The notes under the pieces were generated by a model. That model was given only the letters and a program-made list of their open reading frames with translations, was not told where the DNA came from and did not search any database. From assembly GCA_041659005.1 (NCBI GenBank), contig JBAZZD010000003.1:2650-66649 (forward strand): a stretch of 64,000 nt of DNA. The letters are read 5' to 3'. Source of the stretch: Minisyncoccota bacterium (lineage in GTDB: Bacteria; Patescibacteriota; Minisyncoccia; UBA6257; GWB1-50-10). Positions 836-64,000 of the stretch are shown piece after piece. The position numbers were made by a program, and so were the translations under genes. Positions within the stretch are counted from its first letter, which is position 1, and every line of letters begins with the position of its first letter.

Positions 836-902
836 AAACATAATATGAAACTAAATTTGATTTTTGTCTTAAAAAAATATAATATTTAAATGGTTTCGTT
901 TT

Positions 903-974
903 GGGCGCTTAGCTTAGTGGTAGAGCGTCTCGTTTACACCGAGAAGGTCGGGGGTTCAATCCCCTCAGCGCCCA
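903..974 (+). tRNA. tRNA-Val (anticodon TAC)
   Basis: Cloverleaf: acceptor GGGCGCT/AGCGCCC, anticodon arm TCTCG-TTTACAC-CGAGA, T-arm GGGGG-TTCAATC-CCCTC; 72 nt, no encoded CCA. Confidence 0.85.
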
Positions 975-1019
975 CAAAAAACAAAAACGCACGTATGTGC
1001 GATTTTTGTTAATGTAGGC

Positions 1020-1195
1020 AATGGAACGAAACAATTTATTGTTGAGTGTTCGGGGATTGAACGCCGGAGCATGTGCGAGTTAGCAAACGAGCACGGCGAG
1101 GCGGTGCCCAGCCCGAAGGAGTGTGACGGCACGACTGAGAGGCGAGGGCAATCTCAATATGTTTGTATTCACCATTTAGTAAAACAATTAGTTGA
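1020..1195. other. GC-rich ~175-bp non-coding element of unknown function (possible structured RNA or small-insertion remnant)
   Basis: Markedly GC-rich island in an AT-rich genome, no credible ORF, bracketed by two copies of the tRNA-Val 3' end. Confidence 0.3.
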
Positions 1196-1206
1196 GAAAA
1201 TCCCGA

Positions 1207-1232
1207 TCTCAGCGCCCACACAACAAAAAACA
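1207..1232 (+). repeat. direct repeat of tRNA-Val 3' end plus downstream A-rich tail (second copy of 962-986)
   Basis: ctcagcgcccaca + A-rich tail present at 962-986 and again at 1207-1232. Confidence 0.7.
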
Positions 1233-1346
1233 GCCGTTTTGTTCTAAGAAATATCGCGCAGACTGCGTAGGCAGTCGAGCGGAAAGAAAATTTTTAGCAA
1301 AAAAATATTCTGGTTCCAAAGAACAAACAGCTGTTGCCCTTAAAAG

Positions 1347-3215
1347 TTATTTTGCAGTTACCGAATCGGCTGAAACTCCAAGATCTTTAAGAAGTTTATA
1401 AAACTCTTCTTGTTCAAGCGTTTCTTTTTCAATAAGCGCCGCCGCAACGCCATCAAGCGCTTTGCGATAGGTGGTCATTATTTTCCTTGCGGTTTGCAAT
1501 CCTTTTTGGAGATATTCATTAATTTCTCCATCAATAGTAGTTCCTACCGTTTCAGAATAATCTTTATCATTTCCAAATCCCCGCCCCAAAAATGTCATCT
1601 CTTGCCCCTTTCCATAGGCGCGTGGCCCAAGTTTTTCACTCATTCCATATTTTGTTACTAATAACTCTGCCATATCGGTTGCTTGCTGAATATCGCTCGA
1701 GGAACCAGTAGTGATATCTTTAAATACCGCCTGCTCAGCAGCGTATCCACCCAGTGAAACTGCAATATCTCCAACAAAGTCTGATTTTGTTCTTAAGTGT
1801 CGTTCTTCCATTGGAAGTTTTAGTGTGTATCCACCTGCCACGCCACGGCTTACCACAGAGACCTTATGTACTGGATCTGAATTTTTAATAATTGCCGCGA
1901 CAATTGCATGACCCGCTTCGTGGTATGCGGTCACTCGCTTTTCATGGTCGTTGATAATTCTATTCTTTCGTGCAGGACCAAGTAATACTTTTTCAATCGA
2001 ATCCAACAAGTCTTCTTGTTCAATAACTTTTCGATTATTTCTTGCGGCAAGAATCGCTGCTTCGTTCATTAGATTCGCAAGTTCCGCCCCAGCAAATCCT
2101 GGCGTACGAAGTGCAACCACATGAAGATCAGATGATTTTGAAAGCGGTTTTCCTTTTGAGTGAATGTGCAAAATATCTTCTCTGTCTTTTATATCCGGCA
2201 TATCGAGTATCACGCGTCTATCAAATCGTCCCGGACGAAGAAGCGCTTGATCAAGAACATCGGGTCTATTTGTTGCGGCAATAACAATCACGCTGGTATC
2301 CCGTTCAAACCCGTCCATCTCAACAAGAATCTGATTAAGCGTCTGTTCACGCTCATCGTGTCCACCGCCCATTCCCGTTCCTCGCTCGCGTCCCACTGCA
2401 TCAATTTCATCAATAAAAACAATTGCAGGTGCCGATTTCTTTGCCATTTGGAACAGGTCACGAACACGAGATGCCCCAACACCAACAAACATTTCGACAA
2501 ATTCTGATGCTGAAATATGGAAAAATGGAACGTCGGATTCTCCGGCAACAGCACGCGCAAGCATTGTTTTTCCGGTTCCGGGAGTTCCCATAAGAAGCAC
2601 CCCACGAGGAATTTTTGCTCCCATCGCATGGAATTTTTTTGGACTTTTTAAAAATTCAACAACCTCCCACAATTCTTCTTTTGCTTCTTTGAGTCCTGCG
2701 ACGTCTTTAAATAAAATTTTGTCTTTTAACGGAGAAAATAATCGAATATTCACCCTCCCAAAAGAAAATGCCTGACTTGCTCCACCTTTTGCTTGGCGAA
2801 GCATCCACCAAAGAATAAGTCCCATAATAACCAACGGAATAAGCGTCGGGAGAAGAACCCCCATCCAATATTTCGCCCCACCTTGATCTTCTATCTTTAT
2901 TTCAATCTTTCCCAATGTACTTGATGAAATTCCATAACTTGATAGGGTTTCTAAGATTCCAACTCCCTGTTCCTTTTTTGATTTTATTTTTGTCCCATCG
3001 TTCAGATCAAGCGTAAGGTTGTTTTCTTGTGCTGTTATTGTTTTTACTTCTCCGTTTGCTATTTTCTTTGCCACGTTGCTAATGCTTGTTTCTTCTGGTG
3101 CTTTTGATTGCGTATCAAGAATCGCCCCAAAAAGAAGTGTAGTAATAATAAGAAAGATGACCGCAAGTATAATATTTTTCCAAAGTGATTTCATTCTGTT
3201 AGAAATAGATCGCAA
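1347..3215 (-). CDS. ftsH: ATP-dependent zinc metalloprotease FtsH
   Basis: N-terminal TM, AAA Walker A GTPGTGKT, second region of homology, HEAGHA zinc motif. Confidence 0.92.
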
Positions 3216-6332: not shown

Positions 6333-8807
6333 ATGAAAAAAGAAGAAAAAAATATTGAAATAGTACACGAGTCAATCCAACCACAAGAAATCACCGACGA
6401 ATTACAAAAATCATATTTAAGTTATGCAATGTCCGTTATTGTCTCGCGTGCTCTTCCCGATGTACGTGATGGATTAAAACCAGTACAACGCAGAATATTG
6501 TGGGGAATGTGGGACATGGGACTCACGCATACCACAAAATTTAAAAAATCAGCAAATGTAGTTGGAGAAGTTATGGGAAAATATCACCCGCATGGAGATC
6601 AAGCTATATACGACTCAATGGCACGTATGGCTCAAGATTTTTCCCTTCGTTATCCACTAGTAGACGGACAGGGAAACTGGGGATCAATAGATGGTGATGC
6701 GCCAGCAGCAATGCGTTATACGGAAGCGCGTCTTACAAAAATTTCCGCCGAACTATTAACTGATGTAGAAAAGGGGACGGTTGAATGGAATCAGAACTAT
6801 GACAACTCGCGTGTTGAGCCAGCATTTTTCCCCGCGAAACTTCCACACCTCTTATTAAACGGAACTGTTGGTATCGCTGTTGGTATGGCGACTTCCATTC
6901 CACCACATAACTTACATGAAATTATTAATGCGGTAATGCATCTTGCAAAACATCCTGACGCGTCAACAAAAGATTTGATGCAGTTTGTTCCTGGGCCAGA
7001 CTTTCCAACCGGAGGTGTGATTTTTGACAAAAAAGCGCTTGAAGAAGCATACGCAACAGGACGTGGATCAGTAACTATTCGTGCTGTTGCAGAAATTGAA
7101 GAACGAAAAAGCGGGAGTTTCCAAATTATCATTACCGAAATTCCCTATCAGGTAAACAAATCGGATCTTATTACAAAAATGGCGGAACTCGCCCAAGAAA
7201 AACGCATTGAGGGGATCAAAGATCTTCGAGATGAGTCAGACAGAGATGGACTTCGAATTGTTGTAGAGTTAAAAAATGATGCGGGACCGCAAAAGGTTTT
7301 AAATCAACTATTTCAATATACTGAGCTTCAAAAGAATTTCTATTTTAATATGTTGGCACTTGAGAATGGAATTTCACCAAGAATTTTTTCATTAAAAGAT
7401 GTTCTCTCTGCATATCTTGACCACCGAAAAATTATGGTGCGCAAGAGAACAGAATTCGATTTAAAAAAAGCTGAAGAACGCGCGCATATTCTTGACGGAC
7501 TCGCAACCGCACTCGATGTTATCGATAAAATAATTGAAACAATCAAGAAATCAAAAGACAAGGAAGAAGCGCGTGCCAACCTGATGAAAAGGTTTAAACT
7601 TTCTGAAATACAGGCAAATGCGATTCTCGAAATGCGCTTGCAGTCACTCGCGGCACTTGAAAGAATAAAAATTGAGGACGAATTAAAGGAAAAGAAAAAA
7701 TTTATTGCTGAGTGTAAGGCAATTCTAAAATCAGATGAACGAATTATCGGCATAATCACCGAAGAACTCATTGGACTTAAAACGACATACCCGAGTGAAA
7801 GAAAAACAAAACTTGTTTCCTCTGGAATCAAGGAATTTAAGGAAGAAGACCTCATTCAAAACGAAGAGGTGATTGTGACCCTAAGCCAAGATGGATATAT
7901 CAAGCGAATGCCACCAACGGTATTTAAGGCACAACGGCGGGGAGGAAAGGGGTTGATCGGTTTTGAATTAAAAGAAGAAGATCAAATACACAAAATTATC
8001 ACCGCCAATACCCACGATAATATTCTTTTCTTCACTGATAAAGGACGGGTATTCCAAACAAAGGTGTATGAAATTCCCGTTGCGTCACGAACGTCAAAGG
8101 GGAAATCAGTACATAACTTCCTTACACTTCCGCCGAATGAAAAAATTTGCTCGGTGGTAAATTATGAAGGTGTTGAGGGTGGAAAGCGTGGAGAGGGAAG
8201 TGGATTTCTCGTTATGGCGACACGAGATGGAATTATCAAAAAAACAGACTTTAAAGATTTCTCTAGTGTCAGAAGAACTGGAATTATCGCTATTACCTTA
8301 AAAGGTGAAGATGCGCTTCAGTGGGCAGATCGCTCCTCGGGAGAAGACGAAATTATTCTTGTAACGGCTGACGGACAATCAATTCGATTTAAAGAAAAAG
8401 ATGTGCGCGCAATGGGAAGAACTGCGTCAGGAATCAAAGCAATACACTTAAAAGGAAAGGATGTCGTTGCTGGATTTTCTATAATTACAAAAGGAACAAA
8501 ATCTGATATCCAATTTCTTGTCATCATGGGAAATGGATATGCAAAACAAACCCCAATCAAAGAATATAAAGTACAAAAACGTGGGGGAAGTGGGATTCGT
8601 ACTGCCAAGACAACAGATAAAACAGGAAAAGTGGTCGCCGCACACATTATTGATGGAAACGCGGAAGAGGTAATTGTATTTTCATCAAAAGGACAAGTAA
8701 TTCGAACAAAACTTTCAGACATCCGCGTCACTGGACGCGCAACACAAGGAGTAAAAATGATGAATCTTGATGCGGGGGACTCAATTATGGGGATTGTCGC
8801 ATTATAA
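6333..8807 (+). CDS. gyrA: DNA gyrase subunit A
   Basis: [26 protein letters not shown] active-site region with catalytic Tyr, C-terminal beta-pinwheel repeats with GyrA box QRRGGKG. Confidence 0.93.
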
Positions 8808-10323: not shown

Positions 10324-10809
10324 ATGAAAGTTTCTCTTTTTGTCTCTGTTGTATTGGTCTTGTTTTTTATATTTATCCCATCACTTTCACTTGCTGCGGA
10401 CCCACCTTCAATATTTAGTGGAATTAATATCTGGCAAAACGCCTACTGCGGAAGCACTAGTAGTCCAATTACAAGCACGGAAGGACCAAAAGGTCCGTGC
10501 GGATTCTGCGATGCTATTATCATTGCGTCAAATGTGATGCGATATATGTTCGAACTTGTTTTTTATATTCTTTTTCCTGTGTTCTTTGCTTGGGGCGGGA
10601 TACAGTTTATGATATCCCAAGGAAACCCAAGTAAGATAAAACAGGCAAGACAAATACTTATCAGCACCGTAATAGGATTTGTAATTGCAGCGGCTGCGTG
10701 GCTTATTATTGGCCTTTTGTTTCACTTAATGACGAATCTCTCTAGTACAAGTTCACCAGACCCAAATAGTGTTAACTCAATTAATCCGTGGAATAAAATA
10801 GAATGTTAG
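10324..10809 (+). CDS. VirB2/TrbC-like pilin family protein (paralog 1)
   Basis: Signal peptide, Cys pair, two hydrophobic helices separated by short basic loop QGNPSKIKQARQ. Confidence 0.55.
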   Translation: MKVSLFVSVVLVLFFIFIPSLSLAADPPSIFSGINIWQNAYCGSTSSPITSTEGPKGPCGFCDAIIIASNVMRYMFELVFYILFPVFFAWGGIQFMISQGNPSKIKQARQILISTVIGFVIAAAAWLIIGLLFHLMTNLSSTSSPDPNSVNSINPWNKIEC

Positions 10810-62329: not shown

Positions 62330-63649
62330 ATGAACAAAGAAAAAACAGCACAATGGATGGCAATTCTCTCTCTTTTTTTAATTCCTTTCAATATAAAGAA
62401 ATTCATTACTTTATTGATTGGTAACGGCGAGTATTTTCCTCTTGAATTATCTAGCGCATTTTTGTATCTTTCAGAAATTTTCTCAATTTTTTTTATTCTT
62501 TTTGTGATAATTACGAAAAGAAAGGAATTTTTATTACTCTGTCGGTTGCTTTGGCCATTATTTTTATTGCTCGGGATTTCAATTATTTCAATCGCAATAA
62601 GCGACTCACTTCTGCTATCAATTGTTTCATGCGTGCACTTATTTTTTATAACACTCTTTACTGTTGCGGTCGCGACAGTAATCCACTCACAAATACTTTC
62701 AGTTCGTGACGCAATGAAAGTATTTGCCATTTCTGCGCTTTTACAGGCAGAAATTGCGATTTTGCAATTTGTTAATCAGGGATCAATCGGACTACATTTT
62801 TTTGGAGAAGAAACAATTAATGCGCTTACTCAAGGCGTTGCAAAGATTGAGGTGTTTGGATCAATTTTTATTCGTTCGTATGGAACATTTCCACACCCAA
62901 ACATACTTGGTGGATTTCTTGTCTTGGGAGTCATTGCGTGGATTTATCTTTTTTCTTCTCCATCAAAACGACATGGAGTGTTCCACCGGTCCACTTCTCT
63001 TATTGGGTTGTTTGTTGTTTTGCTTGGTCTTGTATTTTCATTCTCTCGGTCAGCTTGGATTGCAGCAATTGTTTCCTTCATTTTATGCATCATTATTCTT
63101 TTTAGTAAAAAAGAATATTCATCTGTTGCTCGAGAACTTGTTTTGAGCGGTATGATTTTTGGTGCCATATTACTTGGAATGGTTGGATGGGCCCTTGTTT
63201 CGAGGGGAACTATAAAAAATGATTCTGCAATAAATGAACGAAAGGTATACACATATATTGCAGTTGATATGATGGGCGAGTATCCGTTTGGTGTTGGAAT
63301 AGGAAATGGGATAGTCCGTGCGGAACAAGAGGGAAGATATGACGCATATGGCCTCGCGAGCAAAGCAACGCATCAACCAGTTCATAATATTTATTTACTT
63401 ATAGCCGAAGAGTTGGGAATTGTAGGAGTTATTGTTTTTCTTTTTTTCGTTGGGAATTTGTTTGTTATAAAAAAACAAAAAACACATCTTATTGATGTCT
63501 CATTTTTACTTGTTATGTTTGTCTCGTTTCTTTTTATTGGATTATTTGATCACTATCTACTTACGCTTAATGCGGGCCGATTGATGTTTTTTTCAATTTT
63601 AGGGATAATAGCCGGACTTTCTCTAAAGACAGAAAAAGAGCCCTTGTAG
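62330..63649 (+). CDS. O-antigen ligase-like (Wzy_C domain) polytopic membrane protein
   Basis: Multiple TMs with periplasmic loop and FSFSRSAWIAAIVSF helix typical of Wzy_C. Confidence 0.5.
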   Translation: MNKEKTAQWMAILSLFLIPFNIKKFITLLIGNGEYFPLELSSAFLYLSEIFSIFFILFVIITKRKEFLLLCRLLWPLFLLLGISIISIAISDSLLLSIVSCVHLFFITLFTVAVATVIHSQILSVRDAMKVFAISALLQAEIAILQFVNQGSIGLHFFGEETINALTQGVAKIEVFGSIFIRSYGTFPHPNILGGFLVLGVIAWIYLFSSPSKRHGVFHRSTSLIGLFVVLLGLVFSFSRSAWIAAIVSFILCIIILFSKKEYSSVARELVLSGMIFGAILLGMVGWALVSRGTIKNDSAINERKVYTYIAVDMMGEYPFGVGIGNGIVRAEQEGRYDAYGLASKATHQPVHNIYLLIAEELGIVGVIVFLFFVGNLFVIKKQKTHLIDVSFLLVMFVSFLFIGLFDHYLLTLNAGRLMFFSILGIIAGLSLKTEKEPL

Positions 63650-63711
63650 TTGAATGGATACAATACCTCCCTCCGAAGGAGGTGGTGCAGGTTCGATTCC
63701 TGCCAAGGGCA
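63640..63711 (+). tRNA. tRNA-Arg (anticodon CCG)
   Basis: Acceptor GCCCTTG/CAAGGGC, anticodon arm CCTCC-CTCCGAA-GGAGG, T-arm GCAGG-TTCGATT-CCTGC; overlaps last 10 nt of upstream CDS. Confidence 0.8.
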
Positions 63712-63925
63712 CAAAAGAAGCGAACCGTAGGCGCACGATAATAAGGAGTGGAACACGACTATATTATCGTAGCGTTTCGACTGAAAGGAGAAGCGATTTC
63801 CTGCCAAGGGCACAAAAGAAGCGAACCGTAGGCGCACGATAATAAGGAGTGGAACACGACTATATTATCGTAGCGTTTCGACTGAAAGGAGAAGCGATTT
63901 CCTGCCAAGCCTGCCTGCCGGTAGG
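63697..63925 (+). repeat. tandem repeat: about 100-bp unit x2 plus partial third copy, beginning inside the tRNA-Arg T-loop/3' acceptor and ending with a GC hairpin
   Basis: Unit ttcctgccaagggcacaaaagaagcgaaccgtaggcgcacgataataaggagtggaacacgactatattatcgtagcgtttcgactgaaaggagaagcgatt repeated at 63701 and 63801 (one extra t), third copy truncated at 63909. Confidence 0.85.
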
Positions 63926-64000
63926 CAGGGGCACACAACGCAGAACTCAACCGAGTGATTTAATTTACAATTTATAAATTTTCCGTCCTAGGCGCCTGCC

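Follow-up and report, generated by a model that had tools for sequence, protein, structure and literature searches.

A family of structured elements with tRNA-derived arms in the 3΄ trailers of tRNA-Val and tRNA-Ile genes of Candidatus Paceibacterota

We analyzed a stretch of 64 000 nt from a Minisyncoccota bacterium (contig JBAZZD010000003.1, positions 2650–66 649; hereafter, the window), in which an intact tRNA-Val(TAC) gene, called identically by ARAGORN and Rfam (tRNA model, 71.7 bits), is followed on the same strand by a short GC-rich element ending in a copy of the tRNA 3΄ end. The gene at 1347–3215 on the – strand encodes FtsH, and the database entries nearest to it carry the labels Candidatus Paceibacterota or Parcubacteria. 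The element recurs in related genomes with a conserved, covarying fold and with arms derived from the adjacent tRNA, and we consider below whether it might be a structured RNA, a mobile element or both. The coordinates of all features are collected in Table 1.

The repeated sequence, CTCAGCGCCCACA, consists of tRNA positions ~63–73 and two trailer bases (CA) and occurs exactly at two sites spaced 244 nt apart from start to start. A first-pass annotation, made from the sequence alone, had placed the second occurrence of the tRNA-Val end and an A-rich tail at 1207–1232; the repeat proved to be real (13 nt exact, and 87% alike across 23 nt when the tail is included), with its start at position 1208. 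When up to two mismatches were allowed, these two sites were the only matches to the 13-mer on the + strand of the 64 kb, and the sole further match was the 5΄ acceptor strand of tRNA-Val itself on the – strand (900–912); the number of matches expected by chance is 0.48. As a control, the longest downstream direct copy was at most 7 nt in 16 other element-free tRNAs from the window and related loci, and the null distribution for downstream copies of tRNA ends averaged 6.2 nt and did not exceed 10 nt. Chance is excluded as an explanation.

We compared the locus among contigs encoding an FtsH 98% to 69% identical to that of the window. The order of the genes (gyrA, Lactamase_B_3, S1-domain protein, FtsH, tRNA-Val and tRNA-Ile, RNase H-like genes) is kept among these relatives, and the tRNA-Val/tRNA-Ile pair is inverted or split in several of them. 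Homologues of the element lie between tRNA-Val and the FtsH stop codon in L001, L002 (identical to L003), L007 (identical to L008 and L012) and L020. Two distant genomes, with FtsH ~71% identical, also carry the element, after tRNA-Val in L021 and between tRNA-Ile(TAT) and tRNA-Val in L023, and a copy after tRNA-Val in L024 was added by a scan of metagenome contigs with a pattern of the type-A core. R1, a covariance model constructed with five copies, detected nine copies in eight related Paceibacterota contigs (E from 1e-45 to 5e-5). All nine are 150–220 nt long and lie directly 3΄ of tRNA-Val(TAC) or tRNA-Ile(TAT), on the strand of the tRNA. The ninth copy (L002 10563–10710; R1 score, 89 bits) directly follows tRNA-Ile, and the region containing it (10490–10710) carries a 20-nt copy of the tRNA-Ile(TAT) end. 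It is the second of two copies within 12 kb of L002, whose FtsH is 94% identical to that of the window, and it is AT-rich (GC 0.39) yet keeps its helices; in the genome of the window, the region equivalent to this one is located upstream of window position 1. In the window, R1 run with its speed filters off found exactly one copy in 64 kb. The comparison of tRNA-Val loci proposed in the first-pass annotation revealed an element that recurs as a conserved core and is absent at the site in some relatives.

Sequence patterns were also searched for in larger collections, from which several of the contigs reached by the FtsH look-ups were missing. The pattern AGTTGARAAAATCCCNNNNTCAG occurred in 10 stretches of genome contigs, of which only that in DeMMO6_41 (the L007 contig) is clearly real; on reading, the one in L016 proved to be coincidental and to lie in coding DNA, and the remaining eight belong to contigs of unrelated phyla. 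The core pattern had no match in viral contigs. A gapped pattern matched one viral contig (L029), and we regard this match as chance: it lies in GC-rich DNA that reads like coding sequence, with no tRNA nearby and no match to the covariance model. The phage and plasmid collections yielded no match.

The copies fall into two types that share helices P2–P5 and an apical GA-GC-GACG-GC-GA motif and differ in P6: type A (window, L001, L021, L023 and L024) and type B (L002, L007 and L020). RNAalifold applied to the five type-A copies predicted 43 base pairs, of which 21 show compensatory double changes, arranged in a hairpin (P2), a helix (P3; GGGGAUU with AAUCYC), a helix (P4; CGCC/GGCG) enclosing P5, and P6. 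In the consensus, the internal loop of P5 is a tandem GA..GA and its tetraloop is AGYA, and P6 contains two further GA/GA loops and a GACG apical loop. In an alignment of all nine copies, in the 3΄ half of which the three type-B copies align poorly, 93.7% of the cells were standard pairs, compared with 73.2 ± 1.5% when partners were shuffled, and 30 of the 43 pairs had changed on both sides. The covariation score was 0.504 as against 0.175 in shuffles, with none of 500 shuffles reaching 0.504, and when the partners were slid by one to three columns, pairing fell to 29–47%. Around this constant core, peripheral hairpins have been gained, lost or replaced. Extra hairpins are inserted at differing places in L007, L024 and the window, and the P2 stem of L024 has an entirely different sequence and still forms a hairpin. 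The conserved trait is structure and not base composition, as the AT-rich L002 copy with its intact helices illustrates.

We next consider which strand folds. The consensus energy was lower for the tRNA strand (–63.2 kcal/mol) than for the reverse complement (–49.9 kcal/mol), and each of the five sequences folded better on the tRNA strand, by 5–14 kcal/mol. G.U pairs were more frequent than A.C pairs (6 to 4) and G.A more frequent than C.U (10 to 3), and the three tandem GA..GA loops would be UC..UC mismatches on the opposite strand. T-run terminators lie on the tRNA strand downstream of the element in L002 and L024, and at the position of the weak hairpin that follows the element in the window, strong + strand terminators are present in L001, L002, L007, L020 and L024. 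The assignment of the tRNA strand as the folding strand is moderately secure. An antisense RNA, considered because the – strand reads C(UUCG)G, was rejected on the basis of the folding energies and mismatch types.

Table 1. Features of the tRNA-Val locus in the window
Feature	Position	Strand	Description
tRNA-Val(TAC)	903–975	+	Intact; CCA not encoded (…GCGCCC-A-CA); ARAGORN, Rfam
Direct repeat copy 1, CTCAGCGCCCACA	964–976	+	tRNA positions ~63–73 plus CA
Hairpin CGCACGTATGTGCG	988–1009	.	A-run before, T-run after; bidirectional terminator-like
Element	1013–1220	+	Full-length R1 match, 196 bits, E ~1e-45; sole copy in the window
P1 5΄ strand homologue GGCAATGG	1017–1024	+	Equivalent to tRNA 5΄ acceptor strand, by comparison with GGCGCTGG of L021
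P2 hairpin ACGAAACAA-TTTA-TTGTTGAGT	1026–1047	+	Helix 1; 8 of 9 pairs changed on both sides
GGGGATTGAAC	1052–1062	+	Exact reverse complement of tRNA-Val GTTCAATCCCC (T-loop, T-stem 3΄ strand)
P3 5΄ strand	1052–1058	+	Part of GGGGATTGAAC; helix 2
P4 (CGCC/GGCG) enclosing P5	1062–1103	+	P5 with tandem GA..GA internal loop and AGCA tetraloop; helices 3–5
P6, long irregular hairpin	1106–1149	+	GCCC-A-GCCC-GA-AG-GA-GUGU-[GACG]-GCAC-GA-CU-GA-G-A-GGC-GA-GGGC; helices 6–7
P3 3΄ strand, AATCTC	1150–1155	+	Homologous position; mutated copy of tRNA T-loop/T-stem AATCCC
3΄ tail (…AACAATTAGTTGAGAAAATCCCgat)	1156–1207	+	Common to type-B relatives; absent from compact L021 and L023
Direct repeat copy 2 (element 3΄ arm)	1208–1220	+	Acceptor 3΄ strand, discriminator A, then CA
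Weak hairpin AAAAC-AGCC-GTTTT, then GTT	1225–1243	+	Read from sequence

At its 3΄ end, the element reproduces the terminal part of the tRNA that precedes it. The direct copy is CTCAGCGCCCACA (13 nt) in the window and L001, which follow tRNA-Val; GACACCCTCAGCGCCCACAA (20 nt) in L021, which follows a tRNA-Val with a different T-loop; and, after tRNA-Ile, GAGTCCTGCCGGACCGACA (19 nt) in L023 and GAGTCCTGCTGGACCGACAA (20 nt) in the second copy of L002. In the last three, the clean cases, the copy extends from T-loop position 57 to two or three bases beyond the discriminator. Moreover, the two Ile-linked arms each fit the tRNA-Ile variant of their own genome, CTGCCGG in L023 and CTGCTGG in L002. The 5΄ strand of P3 is in turn the reverse complement of the T-loop and T-stem of the same tRNA (GGGGATTGAAC in the window, 14 nt long in L001; GGGTGTCGAAC in L021 and L024; CAGGACTCGAAC in the Ile-linked copy of L002), so that Val- and Ile-linked copies have different arms and the same core. 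In the window, P3 has a second possible partner, AAAATCCC at 1198–1205, in the 3΄ tail. In Val-type copies, the 5΄ leader is similar to the acceptor 5΄ strand (L021, GGCGCTGG; window, GGCAATGG), and together with the acceptor 3΄ strand reproduced in the arm it can form a helix, P1; in the window, GGCAATGG pairs imperfectly (6 of 8) with CUCAGCGCC at 1208–1216, and the duplex energy is weak there and good in L021. In older copies the match to the tRNA has drifted, to 9 of 13 positions in both L007 and L024, indicating that tRNA identity is not strictly maintained.

The resulting topology resembles that of a tRNA, with an acceptor-like helix, one hairpin replacing the D and anticodon arms, and a T-stem-like helix with the 100-nt core as its loop. 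The nucleotides of the T-loop are themselves paired in P3. Models of tRNA, mascRNA and the Tymovirus tRNA-like structure matched the real tRNA only, and the sole weak YrlA match fell on the tRNA genes of L021 and not on the element. We also considered a retroelement-type primer-binding site, complementary to a mature tRNA 3΄ end, and rejected it: the complement fits the genomic …ACA trailer, not CCA.

A displaced 3΄ fragment beside an intact tRNA (13 nt in the window, and 19–20 nt in L021, L023 and the Ile-linked copy of L002) is what integration into a tRNA gene leaves behind (Islander, PMC4383910). The first-pass annotation had named an integrated and then decayed element first. In classical form, this would be the scar of a genomic island or prophage in tRNA-Val that had lost nearly everything except the left and right attachment sites (attL and attR) and some junk. 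The displaced fragment is a hallmark of such integration (PMC4383910), and the neighbourhood of tRNA-Ile and tRNA-Val is rearranged among relatives. However, only 232 bp separate the two repeats in the window, the flanking genes are gyrA and those for the S1-domain protein, FtsH and RNase H-like proteins, and no coding-gene remnant is present in any copy, all nine being of similar size. Neither an integrase, a transposase, a reverse transcriptase nor cargo was found in or near any copy. The core is common to contigs with FtsH only ~70% identical, with the compensatory changes described above, and the same core follows two different tRNAs. On the observed covariation and recurrent core, the scar interpretation is largely refuted, and we consider it very unlikely.

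The short internal direct repeats that had been taken to add to an attachment-site (att)-like signature are indeed present (AAACAATTTATTG at 1029–1041 and AAACAATTAGTTG at 1182–1194) and turn out to be strands of helices: the first 'aacaatt' repeat is the P2 hairpin, and the second (1182–1196) is a remnant strand of the type-B P6 helix, in which the palindrome ACAATTGT is central.

The GC content reaches 0.66 at 1051–1150, compared with 0.15–0.45 in the local flanks, which confirms that the bracketed segment is GC-rich unlike its surroundings. The segment had also been said to contain no plausible open reading frame (ORF). ORFs of 55–61 amino acids do cross it on both strands, and they are not conserved: the open frame of the window is interrupted by a stop codon in L001 (FtsH 98% identical), and the copies of more distant relatives differ by frame-breaking indels. 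A search for protein homologues with a chimeric query assembled from six-frame translations of the core gave no match at E ≤ 10.

Rfam 15 assigned no family to the element in a scan of window positions 850–1350 at E ≤ 10, nor to the elements of L002, L021, L023 and L024 at E ≤ 1, and ARAGORN found no transfer-messenger RNA (tmRNA). The proposed Rfam scan thus places the segment in no standard RNA family, group I and group II introns included, and on this basis signal recognition particle (SRP) RNA, 6S RNA, RNase P, tmRNA and ribozymes are rejected as its identity. A divergent housekeeping RNA of one of these kinds, a self-cleaving ribozyme or an intron that Rfam had missed would fit a GC-rich, structured segment in an AT-rich genome, and the stretch CAGCCCGAAGGAG within P6 is loosely like helix 8 of SRP RNA, a partial resemblance to domain IV that had already been called inconclusive. 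No SRP match appeared even at E ≤ 10, however, and the 'SRP-like' hairpin is missing from the type-B copies. Moreover, close relatives lack the element at this site, the L020 copy is decayed and L002 has two copies, which is unlike a single-copy essential RNA; this explanation is extremely unlikely. Group II class C introns insert after terminators, and we rejected such an intron on account of size and because there is no 5΄ GUGYG and there are no domain V signatures.

A second element ending in a copy of a tRNA end follows another tRNA of the window, tRNA-Arg(CCG) at 63640–63712. Here, at 63713–63930, a 101-nt unit occurs in 2.1 perfectly identical tandem copies (63697–63909), and each unit ends in TTCCTGCCAAGGGCAC(AA), a 16–18-nt copy of the tRNA-Arg 3΄ end, and forms a stable long hairpin and a T-arm-like hairpin (z = –3.8). 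R1 did not match the array, and its core is unrelated to that of the Val/Ile element. The third tRNA of the window, tRNA-Leu, has an encoded CCA and no such repeat. Downstream modules ending in a tRNA-end copy therefore accompany two of the three tRNAs of the window, which suggests a general process at tRNA ends in this lineage. Replication slippage or unequal crossing-over might merely have copied the tRNA end locally, producing a fold without function; the perfect identity of the tandem tRNA-Arg units fits this, unequal crossing-over accounting for them once a direct repeat exists. Such local duplication leaves unexplained the inverted T-arm copy, the conserved core, its covariation and the presence of the same core at two tRNAs with matching arms, and it is disfavoured as a very unlikely explanation of the Val/Ile element.

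The final copy of the tRNA-Arg end is broken up at 63910–63929 by a hairpin of 20 nt, CCTGCCTGCCGGTAGGCAGG. The same hairpin lies inside the Val-linked element of L007 (identical to L008 and L012) at 6986–7005 on the – strand, and it may be a tiny mobile palindrome.

The interpretation that we favor, with evenly balanced confidence, is that the copies constitute a previously undescribed family of structured non-coding elements of 150–220 nt in the 3΄ trailers of tRNA-Val(TAC) and tRNA-Ile(TAT) in one clade of Paceibacterota, and that each is a small structured RNA. The element would be transcribed as RNA on the tRNA strand together with the tRNA, either when transcription passes the short hairpin after the tRNA or within a tRNA operon, and enzymes that process tRNAs would afterwards release it. 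In L023, no terminator lies between tRNA-Ile, the element and tRNA-Val, and co-transcription is the simple expectation for an element so placed between two tRNAs. The closing module is built from tRNA sequence (the 3΄ arm copy, its complement in P3 and, in Val-type copies, P1, with the variable P2 at the junction), and the arms would act as a closing stem and may recruit tRNA-processing enzymes. The P4–P6 core, rich in tandem G.A motifs, takes the place of the T-loop and would presumably be the functional part, binding a protein or ligand. In favor of this interpretation are the covariation and its bias towards one strand, the G.A motifs, the terminators located downstream, the operon position in L023 and the drift of composition with structure kept. 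The suggestion in the first-pass annotation that a small structured RNA gene had captured the tRNA end fits well with a covarying fold outside the Rfam families whose arm copies the adjacent tRNA.

Several observations weigh against a structured RNA. The helix P1 is convincing only in L021 and the type-B copies, is missing in both Ile copies and is weak or absent in five of nine copies overall; copying of the final 10 nt of the tRNA is therefore not accounted for by an internal RNA helix. The Val- or Ile-specific arms suggest insertion events. In the Val loci, a terminator-like hairpin stands between the tRNA and the element, no recognisable promoter for the element was seen, and, as the tRNA models do not recognise the element, processing by RNase P and RNase Z is a conjecture. 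The family is patchily distributed and dispensable, the element being absent at this site in L004–L006, L009 and L025–L028. The L020 copy (2374–2534, – strand, type B) reads like a pseudogene, with helix-breaking mutations in P1, P3 and P4 (GGGGATT to GGAGATT; AAAATCCC to AAAACCCC), and its apparent decay indicates that the element is dispensable in that lineage. The covariation itself was drawn from nine related sequences only, in an alignment (A3) fitted to the model. Furthermore, covariation does not allow RNA and folded single-stranded DNA to be reliably distinguished by bioinformatics (PMC5737381), and folded single-stranded DNA is expected to give the same covariation and strand signal.

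The composite nature of the window copy bears on how the element spreads. In the window and L001, a complete type-A core ending in its own P3 3΄ strand is followed by a tail of 50 nt that closely matches the type-B 3΄ end (AACAATTAGTTGAGAAAATCCC…CTCAGC) and that the compact type-A copies of L021 and L023 lack; the window copy looks like a fusion of the two subtypes. Between the window or L001 and L002, both the core and the hairpin after the tRNA differ (CGCACGTATGTGCG and TCGCGAAAGCGA, respectively) although FtsH is 94–98% identical, a pattern that suggests replacement, or several insertions in series with later deletion, rather than gradual divergence.

Such a history would fit a very small mobile element, non-autonomous and targeted to tRNA-gene 3΄ ends, in which the repeat would be an att or target duplication that arose on insertion. 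We regard this, the main rival interpretation, as possible, though less probable than a structured RNA. The complement of the T-arm and the 3΄ arm would then fold, as single-stranded DNA or RNA, into a mimic of or guide to the tRNA target, with the recombinase encoded elsewhere and the core serving recombination. The arms do switch between Val and Ile with the adjacent tRNA while the core remains unchanged, and the Ile-linked copies fit the variant of their own genome; the absence of P1 from these copies leaves no RNA-structural reason for the copied acceptor strand. The three clean copies, starting at T-loop position 57 and running past the gene end, show the pattern of integration into tRNA genes (PMC4383910; bioRxiv 10.1101/2020.12.28.424599), and tycheposons leave the same footprint (bioRxiv 10.1101/2020.12.28.424599). 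Presence varies among close relatives, one copy (L020) is decayed, one site holds type A in some genomes and type B in others with FtsH 94% identical, and the upstream hairpin differs between the two types, and the fused window and L001 copies fit serial insertion or replacement. The tandem array after tRNA-Arg adds an unrelated element of the same architecture. The att-like signature noted in the first-pass annotation may thus hold in part, given the arms that change with the tRNA and the patchy presence, but it comes with no integrase and no cargo. Indeed, no gene for an integrase, transposase or reverse transcriptase accompanies any copy, the window holds a single copy in its 64 kb, and the viral, phage and plasmid collections yielded none. 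A covarying multi-helix core with tandem G.A loops and a strand preference is more typical of functional RNAs, and the AT-rich Ile-linked copy of L002 implies long residence in the host.

L009, an element-free relative, bears on the form of any insertion: it carries the hairpin adjoining the proximal repeat of the window and not the distal flank. That the hairpin between tRNA-Val and the element in the window (CGCACGTATGTGCG) is also found 3΄ of tRNA-Val in L009 speaks against a simple duplication of the tRNA end by an insertion adjoining the tRNA. In addition, there are no terminal inverted repeats outside the arms. On these two grounds, we disfavor a simple target-site duplication and an insertion immediately after the tRNA like that of a casposon or a miniature inverted-repeat transposable element (MITE). 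As to the features used to define MITEs and insertion sequences, the inverted arms are tRNA-derived and internal, and there is one copy in the 64-kb window and there are two in 12 kb of L002.

A structured RNA and a mobile element are not mutually exclusive, and both may hold. A further interpretation, which we consider unlikely, is a self-targeting module of a new kind in which the T-arm complement recognises the tRNA 3΄ end, in the gene or in the transcript, and either guides insertion of the element without a recombinase of its own or acts as a switch in cis. In the latter version, GGGGAUUGAAC would pair either with the T-arm of the nascent tRNA, which would be sequestered, or with the decoy 3΄ arm of the element, which would free the T-arm, and tRNA maturation would be controlled in this way.

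We compared the element with known systems. Like islands in tRNA genes (tyrosine-integrase att sites, Islander islands and tycheposons), it shows an intact tRNA and a direct 3΄ copy that starts in the T-loop in the clean cases, and tandem or serial arrangements beside the tRNA; unlike them, it has no integrase or cargo, the ~130–230 bp that are bracketed are themselves a conserved covarying structure, there is an inverted T-arm copy inside, and in the window lineage the native hairpin of the tRNA lies between the tRNA and the element. With mascRNA on MALAT1, viral tRNA-like structures, YrlA and the tRNA-like domain of tmRNA, it shares an acceptor-like helix leading into a T-stem-like helix and a non-tRNA body attached to this module, here in line with real tRNAs. 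It differs from them in that the T-loop is replaced by the 100-nt core and its nucleotides are paired, P1 is weak or absent in several copies, no tRNA model matches the element, and the arm reproduces the particular tRNA beside it instead of imitating tRNAs in general. In the attP hairpin of CTX phage, used by XerCD, and in integron attC sites, two inverted target-like copies separated by a spacer can fold into a mimic of the double-stranded target. The spaced inverted target-like copies, the precedence of structure over sequence and the strand-specific signal would be shared features. The present element differs in that no recombinase lies near the copies, a conserved core of several helices forms the spacer and the target is a tRNA end. 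Finally, GOLLD and ROOL are structured RNAs of unknown function often found beside tRNAs and possibly co-transcribed with them (PMC5737381). Unlike the present element, they span several hundred nucleotides, are frequent in prophages and have no copy of a tRNA end, and their Rfam models do not match the element.

The tRNA-Ile/tRNA-Val locus is also a rearrangement hot spot. The orientation and spacing of the two tRNAs differ among close relatives (L002, 7220–10362, compared with L007, L020, L021 and L027), the genes being adjacent, divergent or inverted. In L002, ~3.3 kb encoding an 829-amino-acid protein without a Pfam match and a pilin-like N_methyl protein separate tRNA-Ile from tRNA-Val, and the same separation is probably present in the window, where an ORF ends at 835; L004–L006 have a helix-turn-helix gene at that place instead. 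L025 (5972–6090) and L026 (4697–4760), which have identical FtsH, differ by a ~60-nt indel immediately after tRNA-Ile, and the variable stretch contains short GACCGA repeats resembling the tRNA-Ile end. In the window, ~125 nt between the element and the FtsH stop codon (1221–1346) are absent from L001. A third, truncated copy of the element at 1267–1288 (GTAGGCAGTCGAGCGGAAAGAA) was considered and rejected: its likeness to the element's 5΄ part does not reach significance, as an equal or higher score was obtained in 46 of 500 shuffles.

If the element is an RNA, it would add a class of structured RNA from the Candidate Phyla Radiation, where non-coding RNAs are barely charted, and its design would be unusual, with a tRNA-derived closing module that follows the sequence of the neighbouring tRNA. 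If it is mobile, few known site-specific elements would be as small, and it could explain why the flanks of tRNA genes are rearrangement hot spots in these very small genomes. In either case, with the R1 model in hand and the partner tRNAs defined, the family is a concrete and cheap target, and its predictions can be tested in existing metatranscriptomes from groundwater and sediment.

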